DNA of 64,000 bases from positions 1,152,001 through 1,216,000 of the forward strand of contig CBDHDG010000006.1 of the NCBI GenBank assembly GCA_965261595.1, in the 5' to 3' direction. This document shows positions 7,688 to 61,731 of the stretch, piece after piece (within the stretch, counting starts at the first letter, position 1; each line of letters begins with the position of its first letter). This DNA comes from a bacterium (GTDB taxonomy: Bacteria; UBA8248; JACPRG01; G963555815). A program made the position numbers and the translations under genes. The notes below the pieces were generated by a model that saw nothing but the letters and a program-made list of their open reading frames with translations, was not told the DNA's origin and searched no databases.

Positions 7688-7946
7688 GAGGGGTCGGCGG
7701 CCCGAGATCCTTATGGACCAAAGAGATCGTGCACGCCACTGAAATCAATGCCTGAATCTTTTTCCGGCTGAATCCATGTAATCAGCGGAATTAGATGGCT
7801 CGGTATCGCCGGCTGGTGCGTTTATCGAGCCTGACCCACCCCCCCCCCTCCAGCCAGTCCCCGGCAATCCGGAACAGCAAATCCGCAAATACCGCGTTCA
7901 CCCCTTCGGCGCACCATAGATGTCGTGATCGAGATTGTCCGTCCGG

Positions 7947-8996
7947 TCAACCGGGCGGCTCGGACGCTTCGGGAGCGGCGGCGGATTCTTCCGCCCGCGA
8001 CGCGGCCCAGGCCCCCTCCAAAACCCGCCCCAGGGCCCGCTCCAGGACCGAGATGAGGGCGTCCACGTCCTTGGCCTCGTCGATCTCCTGACGCAGGAAA
8101 CGCGCGGCGGGAAAGTCGGAGGCGTAATGGACCACGTGCTTTCTGGCGTGGACCAGTGCGCGGCGGGGAATCATTTGCCCGGCAAGCGCGCGGGTGTGCC
8201 GGAGGGCGCAGGCGAGGCGCTCGGAGACCGGAGGGTCCGGCGGAAGGTCTTCGCCCGCAATGGCGGCGTTCATCTGAGCAAAAACCCAGGGCCTGCCGAT
8301 CGCCCCGCGTCCGACCATCACCGCGTCGCATCCCGTTTCCTCCACAATCCGCCGGGCGTCCTCGGGGGTGTTCACGTCTCCGTTTCCGATGACCGGCACG
8401 CCCACGGCTTTCTTGACGGCGCCGATGACGCTCCAGTCCGCCCGGCCGTTGAACGCCTGGGCCCGGGTGCGCCCGTGAATCGCGATGGCGACGGCGCCGG
8501 CGTCTTCCAGCTTCCGGGCGAAACCGGTCACAGCCTCCACGTCCACGTTGTCCCAGCCCGAGCGGATCTTGACCGTCACCGGGCGGTCGACGGCGCGGAC
8601 CATGGCCGAGACAATCCCGGCCGCGCGGTCGGGAAACCGCAGCAGCGCGGAGCCGGCCTCGGTCTTGACAATCTTCTTGACCGGGCAGCCCATGTTCACG
8701 TCCACCACGTGGGCGCCCAACTCAACGGTGATCCGGGCGGCCTCGGCCATCTCGCCCGGATCACTTCCAAAGAGCTGCATCGACACCGCGCCCTCGGCGG
8801 GGTCCGTCCGAAGCTGCGCGCGGGTCTTCTCACTCCCGTGGACCAGCGCGCGGCTGCTGACCATCTCGGCGCACACGAGTCCAGCCCCCCGCTCCCGGGA
8901 CAGCACGCGATAAGGCAAATGCGAATACCCCGACAGGGGGGCCTGGACCACACGGGAGGTCAGGGTGACGTCTCCGATCCGGACCGGCGCCTTCAC
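7947..8996 (-). CDS. dusB: tRNA dihydrouridine synthase B
   Basis: QAPLSG, DVNMGCPVKK, HGRTRAQ, GNGDV, VMVGRG; GTG start overlaps the tsaD stop. Confidence 0.9.
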   Translation of the reverse strand: MKAPVRIGDVTLTSRVVQAPLSGYSHLPYRVLSRERGAGLVCAEMVSSRALVHGSEKTRAQLRTDPAEGAVSMQLFGSDPGEMAEAARITVELGAHVVDVNMGCPVKKIVKTEAGSALLRFPDRAAGIVSAMVRAVDRPVTVKIRSGWDNVDVEAVTGFARKLEDAGAVAIAIHGRTRAQAFNGRADWSVIGAVKKAVGVPVIGNGDVNTPEDARRIVEETGCDAVMVGRGAIGRPWVFAQMNAAIAGEDLPPDPPVSERLACALRHTRALAGQMIPRRALVHARKHVVHYASDFPAARFLRQEIDEAKDVDALISVLERALGRVLEGAWAASRAEESAAAPEASEPPG

Positions 8997-10105
8997 GAGG
9001 CGAGCTCCCAGCCGGCCTGCGCCTCCATGGCGAGGGCTTCTTCCAGCGGCGGCCCCCCCCCTCCCGCCTGGAGCGCGGAATGGCCGGCGGAGGCGATCAT
9101 CGCCGCGTTGTCCGTGCAATACGCCGGGGCGGGGATGTGGACCCTGACGCCCTCTTCCCGTCCGCGCCGGACCATGGCCTCCCGCAGGCCCCCGTTGGCG
9201 GCCACGCCGCCGACGACGGCGACGTCATCCACCCCCTCGCACCCGGCGGCTCGAAAGGTCTTCGCCACCAGCACCTCGACGGCGGCGTCCTGGAACGCCC
9301 GGCAGATTCGCCCCAACAACTCCGGCGGGATCTCCCGGGCGCGCTCCCGGGGGCTGAGGCCCGGGTCGTCATCGTACAAACCCCGGCCTTTCAGGTCATA
9401 CAGAACGGCCGTTTTCAGGCCGCTGAAGCTGAAGTCGAACGATGGGTCGTTCAGCATCGGACGCGGGAATCGCGGCGTCCCGTCTCCGGTGCCGTCGATG
9501 GGGCCGTGCGCCCGGGCCAGCTTGTCCACCACCGGCCCCCCCGGATATCCGAGACCCAGGATCTTGGCGACCTTGTCATACGCCTCCCCGGCCGCGTCGT
9601 CGCGCGTCGCTCCGAGCAGTCTGAACTTCTCGGATTCATCAACCCGGTACAAATGGGTGTGGCCGCCCGACACCACCAGGGCCACGAAAGGGAATCGTGG
9701 CGGGACCGGGCCTCCCAGGCCGTCCGGCTCGCGCGTGGCCCCCTCGATGAACACCGAGGCCACGTGGCCCGCCAGATGGTGGACCCCCGTCAGGGGAAGC
9801 CTTCTCGCCAGGGCGATCCCTTTGGCGGCCTGCAAACCGACCAGAAGGGCCACCAGCAGCCCCGGCCCGCGGGTGACGGCCACGCCCTCCACGGCCTCCC
9901 ATCCCCCCGCCCGGGAAACCGCCTCGTCCACAACGGGGTGAATGCGCTCGATGTGCCGCCGGGCGGCCAGCTCGGGGACGACTCCCCCGTACGGGGCGTG
10001 CAGATCCGCCTGGGAGGCCACGACCGTGGAACACACGGTCCGGCCCCCTTCGACGACCGCCGCCGCCGTTTCGTCGCACGAGGTTTCGATGCCCAGCACC
10101 CGCAT
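8993..10105 (-). CDS. tsaD: tRNA threonylcarbamoyltransferase
   Basis: LGIETSCDETAAA, HHLAGH, SGGHT, DDAAGEAYDKVAK, CTDNAAMI. Confidence 0.97.
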   Translation of the reverse strand: MRVLGIETSCDETAAAVVEGGRTVCSTVVASQADLHAPYGGVVPELAARRHIERIHPVVDEAVSRAGGWEAVEGVAVTRGPGLLVALLVGLQAAKGIALARRLPLTGVHHLAGHVASVFIEGATREPDGLGGPVPPRFPFVALVVSGGHTHLYRVDESEKFRLLGATRDDAAGEAYDKVAKILGLGYPGGPVVDKLARAHGPIDGTGDGTPRFPRPMLNDPSFDFSFSGLKTAVLYDLKGRGLYDDDPGLSPRERAREIPPELLGRICRAFQDAAVEVLVAKTFRAAGCEGVDDVAVVGGVAANGGLREAMVRRGREEGVRVHIPAPAYCTDNAAMIASAGHSALQAGGGGPPLEEALAMEAQAGWELAS

Positions 10106-10201
10106 GTTGTTATCCGTTCATCGAGAAGCGAGGACCATCCGCGGCCGTCCCGGCGGCTGCTCAAGCCCCGCCGGAGTCTCTGTCCACGCGGCGGAAGCCG
10201 A

Positions 10202-54846: not shown

Positions 54847-56413
<1,567 letters not shown>

Positions 56414-56516
56414 GAACTGCATGTTTCAACTGCGAGTCTGTTTTCGAACAGATCTCCGTAGAGCCCGTCCGAATACTGCTCAAAGGAACCCGTTGGACTG
56501 CGATGCACCCTATTTC

Positions 56517-56531
56517 GTTGTCAAAGAGCGA
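56517..56531 (-). promoter_or_regulatory. rrn leader boxA antiterminator
   Basis: tcgctctttgacaac; a similar ttgttctttgaaaac lies in the ITS before the 23S. Confidence 0.6.
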
Positions 56532-56935
56532 TAGACAGATTGGAGACCCGGGAATCTTCGTTGATCCCGACAGGTTTGTCAAGGAGCAACGTTAAACACC
56601 AAAGATCGGGTCAACCCTCCGGCTAAGTGAAGAAGAATATACCTCCGAGCGGGCGATTGCGCCACAATATTTTACGGGGGAGCGCCGGATTTTCAGAATC
56701 CTCCCGATCCATCTCTTCGGGCCGCGCTCGGGACGGCGACCCGCCCGATTGCAGGCGTGGCCATTCAACTCCGGGCCGGGCAGGATGGCCGGCCTACCGG
56801 ACGGTGTAAATCCGGTGTTTTCAAAACAGGCAGAGCGGGCGTTTGGATCGTTTCACCCCTTGCCCGCCTCCCCCGCAAATCATCCTATGCTATGCTCCCG
56901 ATGAACCCGAAAGAACCTCACGGCGGGAGCGAATC

Positions 56936-57766
56936 ATGCTTTTCCAAAAGGCGTTGCGCCGCCTGACCCCGGACCAGCGGAGGGCGTTCAGGGCCTGGCA
57001 AACCAGGGCCCGCGCCCGCCGGGGAGCGGGCGGCCCGCCGGAAGACGGCCGCAAGGTTGTTACCAACCTCTCTGCCGAAGATCCGTTGGGACGTGACGGC
57101 GATCCGGAAGAAGAGGTGTTCCGCCGGTTCCTCGTCCGGTTGAGCTTGACACGGACAAGGGCCAACTTAAAAAAGAGCTACGAGAAGGCGTGCGCATCTT
57201 TCACCCTTGAAGGTCCCGAGGTCTCCGGGAGAACCTCCGGCTTGGTCAGCCGTGTCATCCCGGCGGACGTTTTCCTCCGAGAACTCGGAATCGCCGCCGG
57301 CCGGCCCGCCGCCGCCTCATCCCTGAACAAGCCCGCGGTTGAGGTGGAGCGCTTTCTGACGCGCTGGAGGAGACGAAGGGCCCGTGTTCTTCGCGACCTG
57401 GAAAAGGTCAGGCTCGGAAGACGCGATAAGAAGGCGGTTTTCCTGGTTTTCGACATTTCCGACGCCGACCGCTCCGATCCCGCAACCCTCAACCGAAGGA
57501 TTGGAAAAGACCCGCCGCCGGACCCAGATACCATATTATTGGAGATGGAAATCCCCGTTGCCGCTCTCGGGCCTAAAAGGTATCCTACGGTCTGTGACGC
57601 GGGCTGGTCGGGATATTTCAAGCCGTCGGCCAGAGAGGCCGATTTCGGCCGGACGCTTGATCTGAACCAACGTCCTCCCGGGCCGGGATTGCCCGAGATC
57701 GTGGCCGAAAATTCGAATGCGAATTGCGTGAGAGATTTTAGGCGCATACCAAGCGGTACGCCATGA
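56936..57766 (+). CDS. Hypothetical protein, possible ART-like fold
   Basis: 276 aa; C-terminal YPTVCDAGW..YFKP...GRT.DL...GLPEIV; ATGA overlap with the next gene. Confidence 0.7.
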   Translation: MLFQKALRRLTPDQRRAFRAWQTRARARRGAGGPPEDGRKVVTNLSAEDPLGRDGDPEEEVFRRFLVRLSLTRTRANLKKSYEKACASFTLEGPEVSGRTSGLVSRVIPADVFLRELGIAAGRPAAASSLNKPAVEVERFLTRWRRRRARVLRDLEKVRLGRRDKKAVFLVFDISDADRSDPATLNRRIGKDPPPDPDTILLEMEIPVAALGPKRYPTVCDAGWSGYFKPSAREADFGRTLDLNQRPPGPGLPEIVAENSNANCVRDFRRIPSGTP

Positions 57767-58695
57767 AACGAGCCACCGCCGTCTGGCGGCCGAAGAACAA
57801 CAGAGACGGGACGCTCAACCTGGACTCGCTGGGAGACGCCTCAGCCGCTGACATCCGACGCTGGATGAAGGCGCGTCTATCGGGCGACGACCTTTACTTC
57901 CCCGAGCGCCCCGACGATCTTCCGGCGCCCGAGCGCCTCTTCATCTACATCTGGGCCAACGCCGAAGGCCGCGCGCAGCGGCTTGTCGAGCGGGGCGCGG
58001 TCTCCCTCCTGAAAGAGATCTTGAAGAAGGACCGCACGCCCGGCCCGGCCGAGACGGCCTACAATCAGGCCATCCTTTTGCTTCTGGCCCACATCCGGCC
58101 CATCGAGGCCCGGGACTTGCTCGAACCCGTCGTCCGATCGGATGAATTCCGGAAAGAGCGTTTTACGGCATCCGGTCTGGATCGTTTGCTCGTCGGGGCC
58201 TGGGCGGCGCAGGGGCAACGGGCGGACGAGGGCCTCGCGCGCGGCCTTTTATCCGAGAAACCCTACGCCCTCGACGCCTTCTGGGTTTTCGCGGAACGGG
58301 GGCCCGAATCGGCCCTCCGCGCCCTGCCCGCGCTCCTGAAACATTTCCGGGACGACCCGGAGGACTACGCCCTCTCGGAGCTCCTCGGGGATTGGGTGGA
58401 GCTCCTTCAGGGGCCAAAGCGTCCGGGCGTTCAGGTCCTGACCTCTCACTTGAAGGACGCGCACGCCTGGGTCCGGGAGATCGTCGCGGCCTCCCTCGAC
58501 ACTGTGGGCATCGAGGTTCCCGGCATCCGCTCCCGGAAAGCGGCCTCACGGGAAAGCAGGCTGATCGGGGAGAAACTCGTGACGGCCTATAACGGCAACG
58601 CCGCAACGCCGGCCATACCTCCCCCCGCCCCCGCCGCCGGACGGCCGTCCACCCCGAGCGCCTGGCACGCTCCCTATCATCCTTCGCCGGCTTGA
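57763..58695 (+). CDS. Hypothetical alpha-helical (HEAT-like) protein
   Basis: 310 aa, amphipathic Leu/Ala-rich helices, Pro-rich tail; coupled on both sides. Confidence 0.7.
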   Translation: MKRATAVWRPKNNRDGTLNLDSLGDASAADIRRWMKARLSGDDLYFPERPDDLPAPERLFIYIWANAEGRAQRLVERGAVSLLKEILKKDRTPGPAETAYNQAILLLLAHIRPIEARDLLEPVVRSDEFRKERFTASGLDRLLVGAWAAQGQRADEGLARGLLSEKPYALDAFWVFAERGPESALRALPALLKHFRDDPEDYALSELLGDWVELLQGPKRPGVQVLTSHLKDAHAWVREIVAASLDTVGIEVPGIRSRKAASRESRLIGEKLVTAYNGNAATPAIPPPAPAAGRPSTPSAWHAPYHPSPA

Positions 58696-60137
58696 GACCC
58701 TCCTTGTCCGCCCCCCCGCCCCCCCAGACAACGCACTTCATCACATTCTACTCGTTCAAAGGCGGCGTGGGCCGGACGATGGCGCTCTTGAACGCGGCGC
58801 ACTATCTGGCCGCGGCGGGCCTGGACGTCCTGATGATCGACGCCGACCTGGAGGCCCCGGGGCTGACGCTGGCGCACAAGCGCGGCCGCAGGAAACCGGC
58901 CCAAGGGTTCATCGCGCTCTACGAGGAGTGCCGGGGTTTCATCGAGAGCGGCGCCGAACCGGACGATGCCCCCCACAAGCTCAAAGGATATCTTCACTCC
59001 TTCACCGTGAATACGCCGCCCCTGCCGGGGGTCGAGCGGCCCGGACGCCTCGCCCTCCTGCCGGCCCACCCGTCGGACACCTCGCCGGACGCCTATCTCC
59101 GCCAGCTCTCCGAGCTGTCCATCCGGGAGGTCGTCGGAAAAGGCATTGCCGTGTACGTGGCCGAAGTCATCCGGGCGCGCGTCCGGGAGGAGGGGTTCGA
59201 CTACGCCCTCATCGATTCCCGGACGGGGTGGAGCGAGGCGGCCGGCTTCTGCGTCCTGGGGCTGGCGGACGCCCTGGCCGTCGTCTCGGGCTTGAACGAG
59301 CAGAACCTCCTCGGGACGAAGGACTTTCTGGAGTTCGTGGCGGGCCGGGAGGGCGAGGCGCCGAAACCCGTCCTGCGGATACTCTCTCCGGTCCCGACGG
59401 CGGAGGAGGATCTCAAAGAGAAACGGTTCAGGCGGGCGCGGGAGCTACTCGGCGGAGAGGCCGCCGTCCAGATCCCGTACCACCCCCGGATCGCCCTCAT
59501 CGAAGAGCCTTTCGTCGTCACCCAGCCGGACCACCACGTGACCGAGCAGTACCGAAAGGCCGCCCGGGCGGTCCTGGCCCTCGTCGGCGACGACCCGGAA
59601 ACGCATCTGCGCGAGGCCACGCGACTCGTCTCGGAGGACAAGATCGAAGAATCGTTGAGCCGCCTGCGCCGGGCCTGCCCCTTTGCGAAGAACGAGGTGA
59701 TCCAGGTTCTCCGTTTAGTCATAACCCAGACGATCCTGGCGAGGGGAGACGTTCCACCGTGGGGCGACGACGCCTTCCTTCTCCTCACTCGCCTGGACCC
59801 CCAAGACGACATCGCATTCAACAACTGGGGAAACCACCTCACCCGCTTAGCTGAAATGGTCTGGAAAGACAAAAGGAAAACCGCCGAAAAATATTTCCGG
59901 GACGCGGAGAAGCGCCTTCGCGAGGCAGTGAGCCTTGCGCCCGAAAAAGAGGCTTACCGGAAGAATCTCGTAACGATGCTCAAACTGTGGGCGGATAAAC
60001 TGGAGGAATCCGGAGACACCCGGGCGGCGGAGAAAAAGCGCGAAGAGGCGGAGGGAGTTTCCTCGACCCCCGCGACCAACAGGAAAAAGAAGACACCGAA
60101 GAAACGTCCGGCCAAACCACGGACGGTCAAAAAGTAA
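58692..60137 (+). CDS. KGGVGR-variant ParA/MinD-like ATPase with C-terminal TPR
   Basis: ITFYSFKGGVGRT, DADLEAPGL, IDSRTG, NEQNL.G; AFNNWGNHL TPR. Confidence 0.88.
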   Translation: MRPSLSAPPPPQTTHFITFYSFKGGVGRTMALLNAAHYLAAAGLDVLMIDADLEAPGLTLAHKRGRRKPAQGFIALYEECRGFIESGAEPDDAPHKLKGYLHSFTVNTPPLPGVERPGRLALLPAHPSDTSPDAYLRQLSELSIREVVGKGIAVYVAEVIRARVREEGFDYALIDSRTGWSEAAGFCVLGLADALAVVSGLNEQNLLGTKDFLEFVAGREGEAPKPVLRILSPVPTAEEDLKEKRFRRARELLGGEAAVQIPYHPRIALIEEPFVVTQPDHHVTEQYRKAARAVLALVGDDPETHLREATRLVSEDKIEESLSRLRRACPFAKNEVIQVLRLVITQTILARGDVPPWGDDAFLLLTRLDPQDDIAFNNWGNHLTRLAEMVWKDKRKTAEKYFRDAEKRLREAVSLAPEKEAYRKNLVTMLKLWADKLEESGDTRAAEKKREEAEGVSSTPATNRKKKTPKKRPAKPRTVKK

Positions 60138-60299: not shown

Positions 60300-60414
60300 T
60301 TAATGGCCTATCTGCGTCTCGCGTGTAGGGGCCGGTACTGAGCCCGGCCCCTACATGTCCATTGTACGATCGCGTGTAGGGGCGGGGCTCCGTACCCGCC
60401 CCAGAAGTGTCGGG
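60300..60414. repeat. GTAG-type REP/REPIN-like composite repeat, copy 2
   Basis: gtaggggccgg...ccggcccctac and gtaggggcggg...cccgcccc; matches 1296-1431. Confidence 0.78.
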
Positions 60415-60431: not shown

Positions 60432-61631
60432 CTACCCGCCGATCGTCACTTCCAGAAACCGCCGCTTGCCGACCTGGATCAGGTGGGTCCCCGCCTCGAC
60501 GTGAAGGTCGGCGTCCGAGACCTTCTCGCCGTTCACTCGCACCCCGCCCTGCCCGATGAGACGCCGCGCTTCGCTGTTGGACTTCGTGAGACCCTGGTCC
60601 GTCAATAACTGACAGATCCAGTGTCCCCCTTCCCGCGCCGGGATCGACACCTTCTTCACGTCCGACGGGACTTCATGCCGGCGGAACCGCGCGACGAATT
60701 CCTCCGCCGCGGCCCGGGCCGCTTCTTCTCCGTGAAACCGCGCCGCGAGCTCGGCCGCCAGGGCGGCCTTGACGTCGCGGGGGTTCCGCGCGCCGCTCTC
60801 GGTCTCTTTTTTCAGCGCCGCCAGGGCGTCCTCATCCACGTCGCTCAACAGCTCATGCCAGCTCCACATCAGCTCGTCCGAGATGGACATGACCTTGCCG
60901 TAGATCTCGCCCGGCGGCTCGTCGATCCCGATGTGGTTGCCGAGGCTCTTGCTCATCTTTCGCCGGCCGTCCGTGCCGACGAGCAGGGGGAGGGTCATCA
61001 CCACCTGGGGTGCCTGGCCGAAGGCGCGCTGGAGCTCCCGGCCCACAAGGAGGTTGAACTTCTGATCGGTCCCGCCGATCTCCACGTCCGCGCGCAGCTC
61101 CACCGAGTCGTAGCCCTGGAGAATGGGGTAGAGGAACTCATGGATGCCGATGGGCCTGCCCTCCCGGCGCCTTATCTGGAAATCGTCGCGCTCGAGCATC
61201 CGGGCCACGGTCTGGCGCGCCGCCAGGCGCAACAGGTCGGCCGCCGAGAGGCCCCCCAGCCAGGCGTTGTTGAAGACGACCTCGGTTTTATCCGGATCGA
61301 GGATCTTGAAGACCTGCCGCTCGTAGGTCCGGGTGTTCTCGCGAATCTGGTCCTCGGTAAGCTGCGGCCGGGTCTCGGAGACGCCGGTGGGGTCCCCGAT
61401 CCGGGCGGTGAAATCCCCGATGAGGAACAGGACGTGGTGGCCGAGGTCCTGGAAATGACGGAGCTTTTGGATCAGGACCGTGTGGCCCAGGTGAAGGTCG
61501 GGGGCCGTCGGGTCGAAACCGGCCTTGACGCGGAGCGGCTTTCCGGCGGCGATCTTCTTCCGAAGCTCCCCCGCCGGGATCACCTCGGCGGCGCCGCGCC
61601 CCAATCGGGCCAACTGGTCTTCCGCGTCCAT
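60432..61631 (-). CDS. tyrS: Tyrosine--tRNA ligase
   Basis: [34 protein letters not shown]4 domain. Confidence 0.98.
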
Positions 61632-61731
61632 CTCCCGACACCCCCGGGCGCAGGCTTTCCAAAACACGAAAAGGCATGGCAACCCCTCGGGCGCCTGCCT
61701 TTTCGTGAAGAAATGCCGGATCTTTGAAAGA

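Follow-up and report, generated by a model that had tools for sequence, protein, structure and literature searches.

The three genes considered here lie at positions 56936 to 60137 of a 64,000-nucleotide stretch of bacterial DNA (GTDB lineage UBA8248; NCBI GenBank assembly GCA_965261595.1, contig CBDHDG010000006.1, positions 1,152,001 to 1,216,000 of the forward strand). This whole stretch is referred to as the window, its coordinates are used throughout unless another locus is named, and the genome it belongs to is denoted G000. All three open reading frames (ORFs) are on the plus strand: gene 1 (56936..57766, 276 aa) and gene 2 (57763..58695, 310 aa) start with ATG, and gene 3 (58692..60137, 481 aa) starts with TTG. 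The sequence GGGAG sits 8 nt 5' of the gene 1 ATG, and neighbouring genes share a 4-nt stop/start overlap, gccATGAaa at the junction of genes 1 and 2 and ggcTTGAga at that of genes 2 and 3. The ORF coordinates and junction sequences thus bear out the overlapping arrangement given in a preliminary description of this DNA, in which the trio was taken for a candidate undescribed conflict or defence system.

The start of gene 2 required a decision, as public gene calls place it at Met35. We rejected this start because residues 1-34 align in all distant homologs, with W34 near-invariant, because the ratio of nonsynonymous to synonymous substitution rates (omega) of codons 1-34 is 0.26, and because the ATGA overlap of genes 1 and 2 was found again in five of the six distant loci examined.

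Gene 3 encodes a KGGVGR-type ATPase

The product of gene 3 scores 133.8 bits on the NCBIfam model NF047398 (AAA_KGGVGR; cutoff 90), and it lies far under the cutoffs of partition ParA, MinD and other relatives. Its layout comprises an ATPase domain (residues ~15-214), a helical middle part, a single short unit of TOM20/TPR-like type (~366-440) and, at the C terminus, a tail rich in Lys, Arg and Pro. In the Walker A motif KGGVGRT (58758..58778, plus strand; residues 23-29), Arg replaces the canonical second Lys, and the further motifs DADLEAPG and DYALIDSRT follow; motifs of these types are also present in all eight other gene 3 copies checked, and the eight orthologues outside the window reach 120.9-132.4 bits on NF047398. 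The ConB2 assemblage of ParA proteins is defined by an Arg for the Walker A Lys (KGGxGR[ST]), a PG after the sensor-1 DxD and a DhhhhD Walker B (Li, Burroughs and Aravind, bioRxiv 10.64898/2026.10.19.760177, preprint of 22 October 2026). All three features of this definition, as worded in the main-text passages of the preprint, are found in gene 3, namely the Arg in Walker A, the PG after sensor-1 and a Walker B of the DhhhhD type. Read from its sequence, gene 3 is a conflict-type ParA variant, and the earlier statement that it is not of the chromosome-partition type agrees with both the NF047398 score and the ConB2 motifs.

A partition ParA had been considered as a candidate and was rejected on account of the Arg-containing Walker A motif, the score on ParA_partition (NF041546; 23.2 bits, cutoff 180) and the lack of a flanking ParB. 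As the preliminary description had noted, no parB is adjacent: none was found among the five genes downstream of the trio, and rRNA lies upstream.

The motifs attributed to gene 3 in that description are all present, but the TPR tail is short and remains below threshold in the window (TOM20_plant 19.1 bits, cutoff 20.6). An orthologue on the metagenome contig L002, which is 79% identical and 667 aa long, carries a full TPR array (TPR_11 6.2e-20, TPR-S 1.3e-8) consisting of 4.1 copies of a 141-nt unit, and TPR_11 and TPR_END_plus are also matched by gene 3 of locus L016. Judged by the array in L002, the window gene appears to have lost about four 47-aa repeats. The C-terminal tail KKKTPKKRPAKPRTVKK (residues ~455-481, 60054-60134), rich in Lys, Arg and Pro, is conserved in L002; the orthologues from Thermoanaerobaculia have no such tail and end in a conserved acidic motif. 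The tail may be a lineage-specific nucleic-acid- or membrane-binding element.

Gene 1 is predicted to have an ADP-ribosyltransferase-like fold

No match to gene 1 was found in Pfam, NCBIfam or PADLOC. A word-indexed search of 5.8 billion proteins returned five relatives, and a profile search with HMMER, run exhaustively over 1.84 billion cluster representatives, found 92 with E <= 1e-3, 13 of these with E <= 1e-10; the majority are full-length with 250-300 aa. For the alignment, 60 relatives were picked by eye, fragments and short-stretch matches being mostly excluded; these are 18-52% identical to the window protein, and none of the 60 has a Pfam match. At least 90% conservation was observed at M1, G93, R106, L189, P217, T218, F228, G238, T240 and E254. 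The C-terminal residue pattern pointed out in the preliminary description is therefore real, since it coincides with the near-invariant P217, T218, F228, G238, T240 and E254.

The AlphaFold2 model, which was built on the family alignment (predicted local distance difference test, pLDDT, 92.7; predicted template modelling score, pTM, 0.89), consists of an N-terminal helical subdomain (~1-90) and a C-terminal alpha/beta domain (~94-276) with the fold of ADP-ribosyltransferases (ARTs) and NADases. In this model R106 lies within the first strand (103-109) and E254 within the long strand 249-258. The fold was judged from three structural searches, one of them with Foldseek, where no match reached E <= 1e-3; its top three rows were all SPN NAD+ glycohydrolase (best E 0.043), and Tpt1, PltA, DarT1, MTX and pierisin appeared in lower rows. 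Taken together, the structural matches belong nearly all to ART, NADase or Tpt1 proteins, with modest Z scores (<= 7.3) and without support from sequence models. Among the sequence-based attempts to name genes 1 and 2, a PDB sequence-profile search gave chance rows only, and an ESM Atlas search gave scores that were all <0.9, the integrase SAM-like matches among them serving as a lead only.

On this model gene 1 has an ART/NADase-like fold of the split beta-sheet type. R106, T218 and E254 are candidate active-site residues, as their order and their positions in the strands correspond to those of the R-S-E/H-Y-E triad. The resemblance to ART/NADase toxin folds with a Glu-bearing strand, which had been proposed from the residue pattern, has gained support from the model, the structural matches and the conserved E254, and the predicted structure makes gene 1 a likely NAD-using toxin.

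Tpt1 among the structural matches belongs to a different reading, in which gene 1 would modify RNA ends, as a Tpt1/KptA-like RNA 2'-phosphotransferase or in another way, and the operon would act in RNA repair or processing beside the rRNA genes. We consider this highly improbable, as the match does not extend beyond the NAD-binding lobe of Tpt1 (chain residues ~84-185) and gene 1 matches no Pfam family. Moreover, the model of the corresponding family, PF01885, detects nothing in G000 and nothing in the phylum's 51 genomes, with three control genomes positive, and the adjacency to the rRNA (rrn) operon is limited to this genus, the flanks at other loci being unrelated.

Gene 2 models as an alpha-solenoid

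Gene 2 has no match in Pfam, NCBIfam or PADLOC either, and the word-indexed protein search yielded 3-5 relatives. Its model, which is of moderate confidence (pLDDT 68.4), shows a HEAT/armadillo-like alpha-solenoid (~10-250) followed by a disordered Pro-rich tail (253-310); it matches open HEAT/ARM solenoids, with no TED among the matches listed. From this model gene 2 is predicted to be an antitoxin or an adaptor, and the data fit both roles. The preliminary description had proposed a scaffold or sensor; an antitoxin is what the TA-ParA scheme of the preprint, discussed below, would call for.

The best-covering structural analogue of gene 1 is the SPN NAD+ glycohydrolase of Streptococcus pyogenes (PDB 3pnt, 4kt6), which according to the PDB entry titles is neutralised by a dedicated immunity factor (IFS). 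However, SPN and gene 1 are only 8% identical, with no sequence-level relation found, and SPN, which is secreted as a virulence factor and contains a translocation domain, lacks a nucleoside triphosphatase (NTPase) partner. IFS is a helical protein. Gene 2 probably restrains the predicted gene 1 toxin.

Genes 1 and 2 stay together, with a variable NTPase

Further loci were gathered through a DNA pattern for FPTVADAGW, two subgroup alignments and one metagenome scan. Two of them were dropped, namely L012 (Mesorhizobium), which has no gene 1 relative and was a chance match of the pattern (1 of 7), and L020, which is the same as L016. According to record titles and source names, the 12 loci kept in addition to the window originate from a Nitrospinota-labelled relative, Thermoanaerobaculia, Aminicenantes, other Acidobacteriota, Myxococcales and Polyangiaceae. 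An ORF of the gene 2 family adjoins gene 1 in 13 of 13 loci (hidden Markov model E values 1e-129 to 1e-7), in L021-L023 with a match that spans the N-terminal ~250 residues of longer proteins. The order 1-2-3 with a KGGVGR ATPase is present in nine of the 13, and 4-nt overlaps at both junctions occur also in L014 and L016. The homologs thus co-occur, as a pair across phyla and as a trio in these nine loci.

The third position differs at the other loci. In L018 (Polyangiaceae), the third gene (7709-10162) encodes 817 aa with a central KaiC/AAA_25 ATPase (PF06745 1.3e-14; PADLOC mad8 2e-8), flanked on either side by ~250-300 residues without annotation. The gene that follows the pair in L021 and in L022 encodes no NTPase, and the gene 2 homolog of L022 carries a C-terminal Mrr_cat / NA-iREase1 domain (4.7e-9 / 3.2e-5). 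The contig of L023 stops too early to show a third gene, and two extra gene 2 paralogs lie directly upstream of its single gene 1, which makes three in all. Judging from these gene contents, the NTPase is exchangeable and the module of genes 1 and 2 may be able to work without one, and both points go beyond the main-text passages of the preprint, where neither a KaiC-like ATPase nor an NTPase-free locus with a restriction-endonuclease-like fusion is mentioned.

The same variants bear on the role of gene 2. It could be a sensor or adaptor scaffold that recognises the invader or recruits the substrate, with ParA or the helical subdomain of gene 1 keeping the ART off, in a wiring like that of the APE systems discussed below. 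A protein-binding solenoid that is neither a helix-turn-helix (HTH) protein nor a small disordered antitoxin would suit such a role, as would the Mrr_cat / NA-iREase1 domain in L022, which is of a type used as a sensor, the three paralogs per gene 1 in L023, which suggest diversifying recognition modules, and the two-gene loci without an NTPase. Nevertheless, we regard this role as unlikely, since toxin-immunity pairs typically show the tight 1:1 translational coupling that links genes 1 and 2, and since the two genes were lost together in the same-genus genome G001, as such pairs are. In addition, SPN has its dedicated immunity factor, and ParA is dispensable or swappable whereas gene 2 never is.

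A bolder view concerns the pair itself. Genes 1 and 2 might be an autonomous unnamed module, formed by an ART-fold clade that is new and combines an SPN-like helical subdomain with the R-T-E set, together with a solenoid inhibitor, to which interchangeable triggers are added; those seen so far are the ConB2 ParA-TPR protein (nine loci), the KaiC/RecA-like ATPase (L018) and, with no NTPase, the endonuclease-like partner fusion (L022). We put this forward tentatively and would sooner doubt than accept it. If it were true, the two genes would make up an NADase/ART defence core sufficient in itself, to which the NTPase is added as an exchangeable accessory, and the solenoid, not ParA, would be the primary regulator.

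The flanks of the cassettes vary by lineage and are not defence islands, and no mobile-element genes were found in them by Pfam. Going by record titles, two metagenome-assembled genomes (MAGs) contain two cassettes each on separate contigs (L013 and L015; L021 and L023), which indicates paralogous copies within one genome. A lytic transglycosylase with TPR and SLT domains adjoins the cassette in the Thermoanaerobaculia loci L011 (3425-6703), L014 (3825-6101) and L015 (9993-12938); this could reflect local synteny or a functional link. Approximately 3.3 kb upstream of the cassette in L015 (814-2427, 2466-3011) there are three tandem genes with phage-tail-collar domains and a GNAT acetyltransferase, and an LRR-Roc-COR protein, a conflict-type GTPase architecture, is encoded on the minus strand of L019 (2-2317), ~3.7 kb upstream of the cassette. 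A narrow scan of viral contigs with one motif variant gave no matches.

The cassette was inserted beside the rrn operon and decays in close relatives

In the window, the cassette lies between the 16S gene (54855-56413, minus strand), which belongs to a complete rrn operon with two tRNAs, 23S and 5S, and tyrS (60432..61682, minus strand; Pfam tRNA-synt_1b 3.3e-82). The next genes beyond tyrS encode HU, a NUDIX enzyme, a cobalamin adenosyltransferase and an AI-2E transporter. The trio is therefore divergent from the rrn leader and convergent with tyrS, as had been described. In the spacer between 16S and gene 1 (56414..56935), the 16S-proximal ~360 bp are the conserved rrn leader, and 56358-56771 is 91.8% identical to the same-genus genome G001. 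A promoter scan gave nothing beyond chance (1 site vs 0.7 expected).

Gene 1 is present in one of the 51 genomes of the phylum. Two genomes of the same family, G006 (L033) and G005 (L034), show the order NUDIX-HU-tyrS-16S, with tyrS directly upstream of the rrn operon in the same orientation and the site empty of the cassette. Because the gap between tyrS and 16S is 413 bp in G006 and 634 bp in G005 as opposed to about 4 kb in the window, which holds a ~3.5-kb cassette on the opposite strand and has kept ~360-415 bp of rrn leader, the cassette is an insertion between tyrS and the rrn leader and was acquired horizontally. No terminal repeats bracketing it were found in the flanks. A vertically conserved housekeeping locus, which would have spoken against the preliminary description, is contradicted by the single positive genome and the empty sites of the relatives.

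All three genes are intact in the window, where only the TPR array is short; in close relatives the cassette shows decay. In L002 (88% DNA identity), an internal deletion shifts the frame of gene 1 and W34 of gene 2 is changed to TAG, with gene 3 intact. In G001 (L032, G001:C22, 1-1600), genes 1 and 2 (~1.95 kb) are cleanly deleted, so that the rrn leader joins codon ~10 of gene 3 within ~40 bp, and the remnant of gene 3 has an in-frame stop and lacks residues ~164-250 including Walker B. Two short metagenome contigs also carry altered copies of gene 1, which is frameshifted near residue 207 in P0002 and has a Cys codon in place of its stop in P0003, where the frame continues over the gene 2 start; these changes could be real variants or assembly errors. 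A comparison of the window with L002 gave omega values of 0.38-0.40 (gene 1), 0.26-0.36 (gene 2) and 0.34 (gene 3), as against 0.16 for tyrS.

This history is relevant to the idea that the trio serves physiology, not defence, by regulatory ADP-ribosylation, with gene 1 as a reversible modifier of a protein or nucleic acid of the cell, gene 2 as its specificity or regulatory subunit and ParA positioning or gating the complex. Such a function could be reconciled with the housekeeping neighbours (rrn, tyrS, HU), with flanks free of Pfam-detectable mobile-element genes and terminal repeats, with the purifying selection on all three genes (omega 0.26-0.40) and with the transglycosylase next to three Thermoanaerobaculia cassettes. 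The patchy distribution and empty sites argue against it, as do the fast pseudogenisation and deletion among close relatives, the multiple paralogous cassettes in some MAGs and the swapped NTPase in one locus. Furthermore, the ParA clade concerned is assigned to immunity in the passages of the preprint (10.64898/2026.10.19.760177), and no ADP-ribose-removing enzyme was seen beside the cassette. A regulatory function thus appears improbable to us, even more so than the sensor or adaptor role of gene 2.

The spacer between gene 3 and tyrS contains an inverted repeat of 28 nt (60328-60355 / 60375-60402, 89% complementary) and a 17-nt direct repeat (60319/60370), and these repeats may form a bidirectional terminator or a repetitive extragenic palindromic (REP)-like element. 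The inverted repeat at 60328-60402 was not called in a consensus terminator scan, the yield of which was no higher than with shuffled sequences. The G000 assembly comprises 6.17 Mb in seven contigs with an estimated contamination of 5.57%, the same-genus genome being ~3.7 Mb, and second tyrS-like matches are present on another G000 contig.

Comparison with described systems

The TA-ParA class of the preprint (10.64898/2026.10.19.760177), which is a computational prediction only, is described in its main-text passages as a toxin, an antitoxin and a ConB2 ParA that carries a sensor, 'most commonly TPRs', with six toxin subtypes, among which the ART subtype is paired with 'previously unrecognized antitoxin domains'. 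In the model given there, the toxin is held by its antitoxin; when the sensor detects an invader, a switch of the complex by ParA sets the toxin free. As far as these passages go, the locus shares with the ART subtype the operon of toxin, antitoxin and ConB2 ParA, the predicted ART-superfamily toxin, a candidate antitoxin that is not of HTH type and was not recognised before, a conserved gene order and a distribution that is not confined to multicellular bacteria. As to the C-terminal TPRs on ParA, they are clear in the L002 and L016 copies, and the array is nearly lost in the window copy. The trio fits TA-ParA at class level by the main-text description, which names no accessions, domains or antitoxin folds for this subtype. 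The claim of an undescribed system does not hold at class level, because a named system of this kind already exists in the preprint, and the trio adds a new member to a class that was predicted only recently and for which only predictions exist so far.

Other known systems are more distant. The APE systems of the same preprint, which combine an alpha/alpha-toroid, a ConB2 ParA and a variable effector, resemble the locus in having three neighbouring genes, for a ConB2 ParA, a helical partner and an effector enzyme. However, in APE the toroid and ParA are constant and the effector varies, whereas here genes 1 and 2 are constant and the third gene is the variable one; the model of gene 2, of moderate confidence, is an open solenoid and not a toroid, and ART is not on the APE effector list in the passages concerned. 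Consequently, APE fits the trio worse than TA-ParA. The ART-fold modules DarT-DarG and MbcT-MbcA are two-gene systems without an NTPase switch, their antitoxins being DarG, an enzyme with a macrodomain, and MbcA, a small binding protein, and the similarity of gene 1 to them is weaker than to SPN or Tpt1.

The PADLOC check, which had been suggested in the preliminary description, gave a divided result. Gene 3 (2.1e-24) and all its orthologues match the candidate model PDC-M28B (E 2e-24 to 7e-27), but the match covers the ATPase domain only and component A of PDC-M28 is absent from the matches. Genes 1 and 2 match no PADLOC model, and there were no matches for 14 proteins from seven loci related to genes 1 and 2 or for the window pair. 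In a full-text literature search, no paper was found that mentions 'KGGVGR' or 'PDC-M28'.

Proposed mode of action and implications

The ConB2 ParA variant, the ART fold and the patchy distribution support the earlier inference of a conflict-type system, and on balance we favour the reading of the trio as a TA-ParA cassette with the three components toxin, antitoxin and NTPase, which we hold to be fairly probable. The ART-fold enzyme encoded by gene 1 would, once freed, destroy NAD+ or ADP-ribosylate an essential target. The alpha-solenoid encoded by gene 2, made in step with the toxin by translational coupling, would bind and restrain it. The C-terminal TPR array of gene 3 would sense an invader-derived signal, upon which its ATP-dependent switch would rearrange the toxin-antitoxin complex and thereby release the toxin, and the infected cell would become dormant or die (abortive infection). 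In this proposal, gene 2 is the presumed neutraliser, ParA the presumed trigger and defence against phages the putative role of the cassette.

As far as its main-text passages indicate, the TA-ParA class rests on the one computational preprint (10.64898/2026.10.19.760177), without a bench-tested member. The locus is a compact, intact 3.2-kb example of it from a lineage that is environmental and not pathogenic, with a confident toxin model and clear mutational targets, namely R106 and E254 of gene 1 and the Walker A residues K23 and R28 of gene 3, and the decayed cassettes of close relatives provide natural knock-outs. Its study could reveal whether an unnamed ART clade depletes NAD+ or modifies a target, and how an immune switch is made from a ParA-type ATPase, whose family is known for positioning DNA and protein complexes. 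The occurrence of one toxin-partner pair with different NTPases or with none, finally, bears on the evolutionary assembly of such systems.

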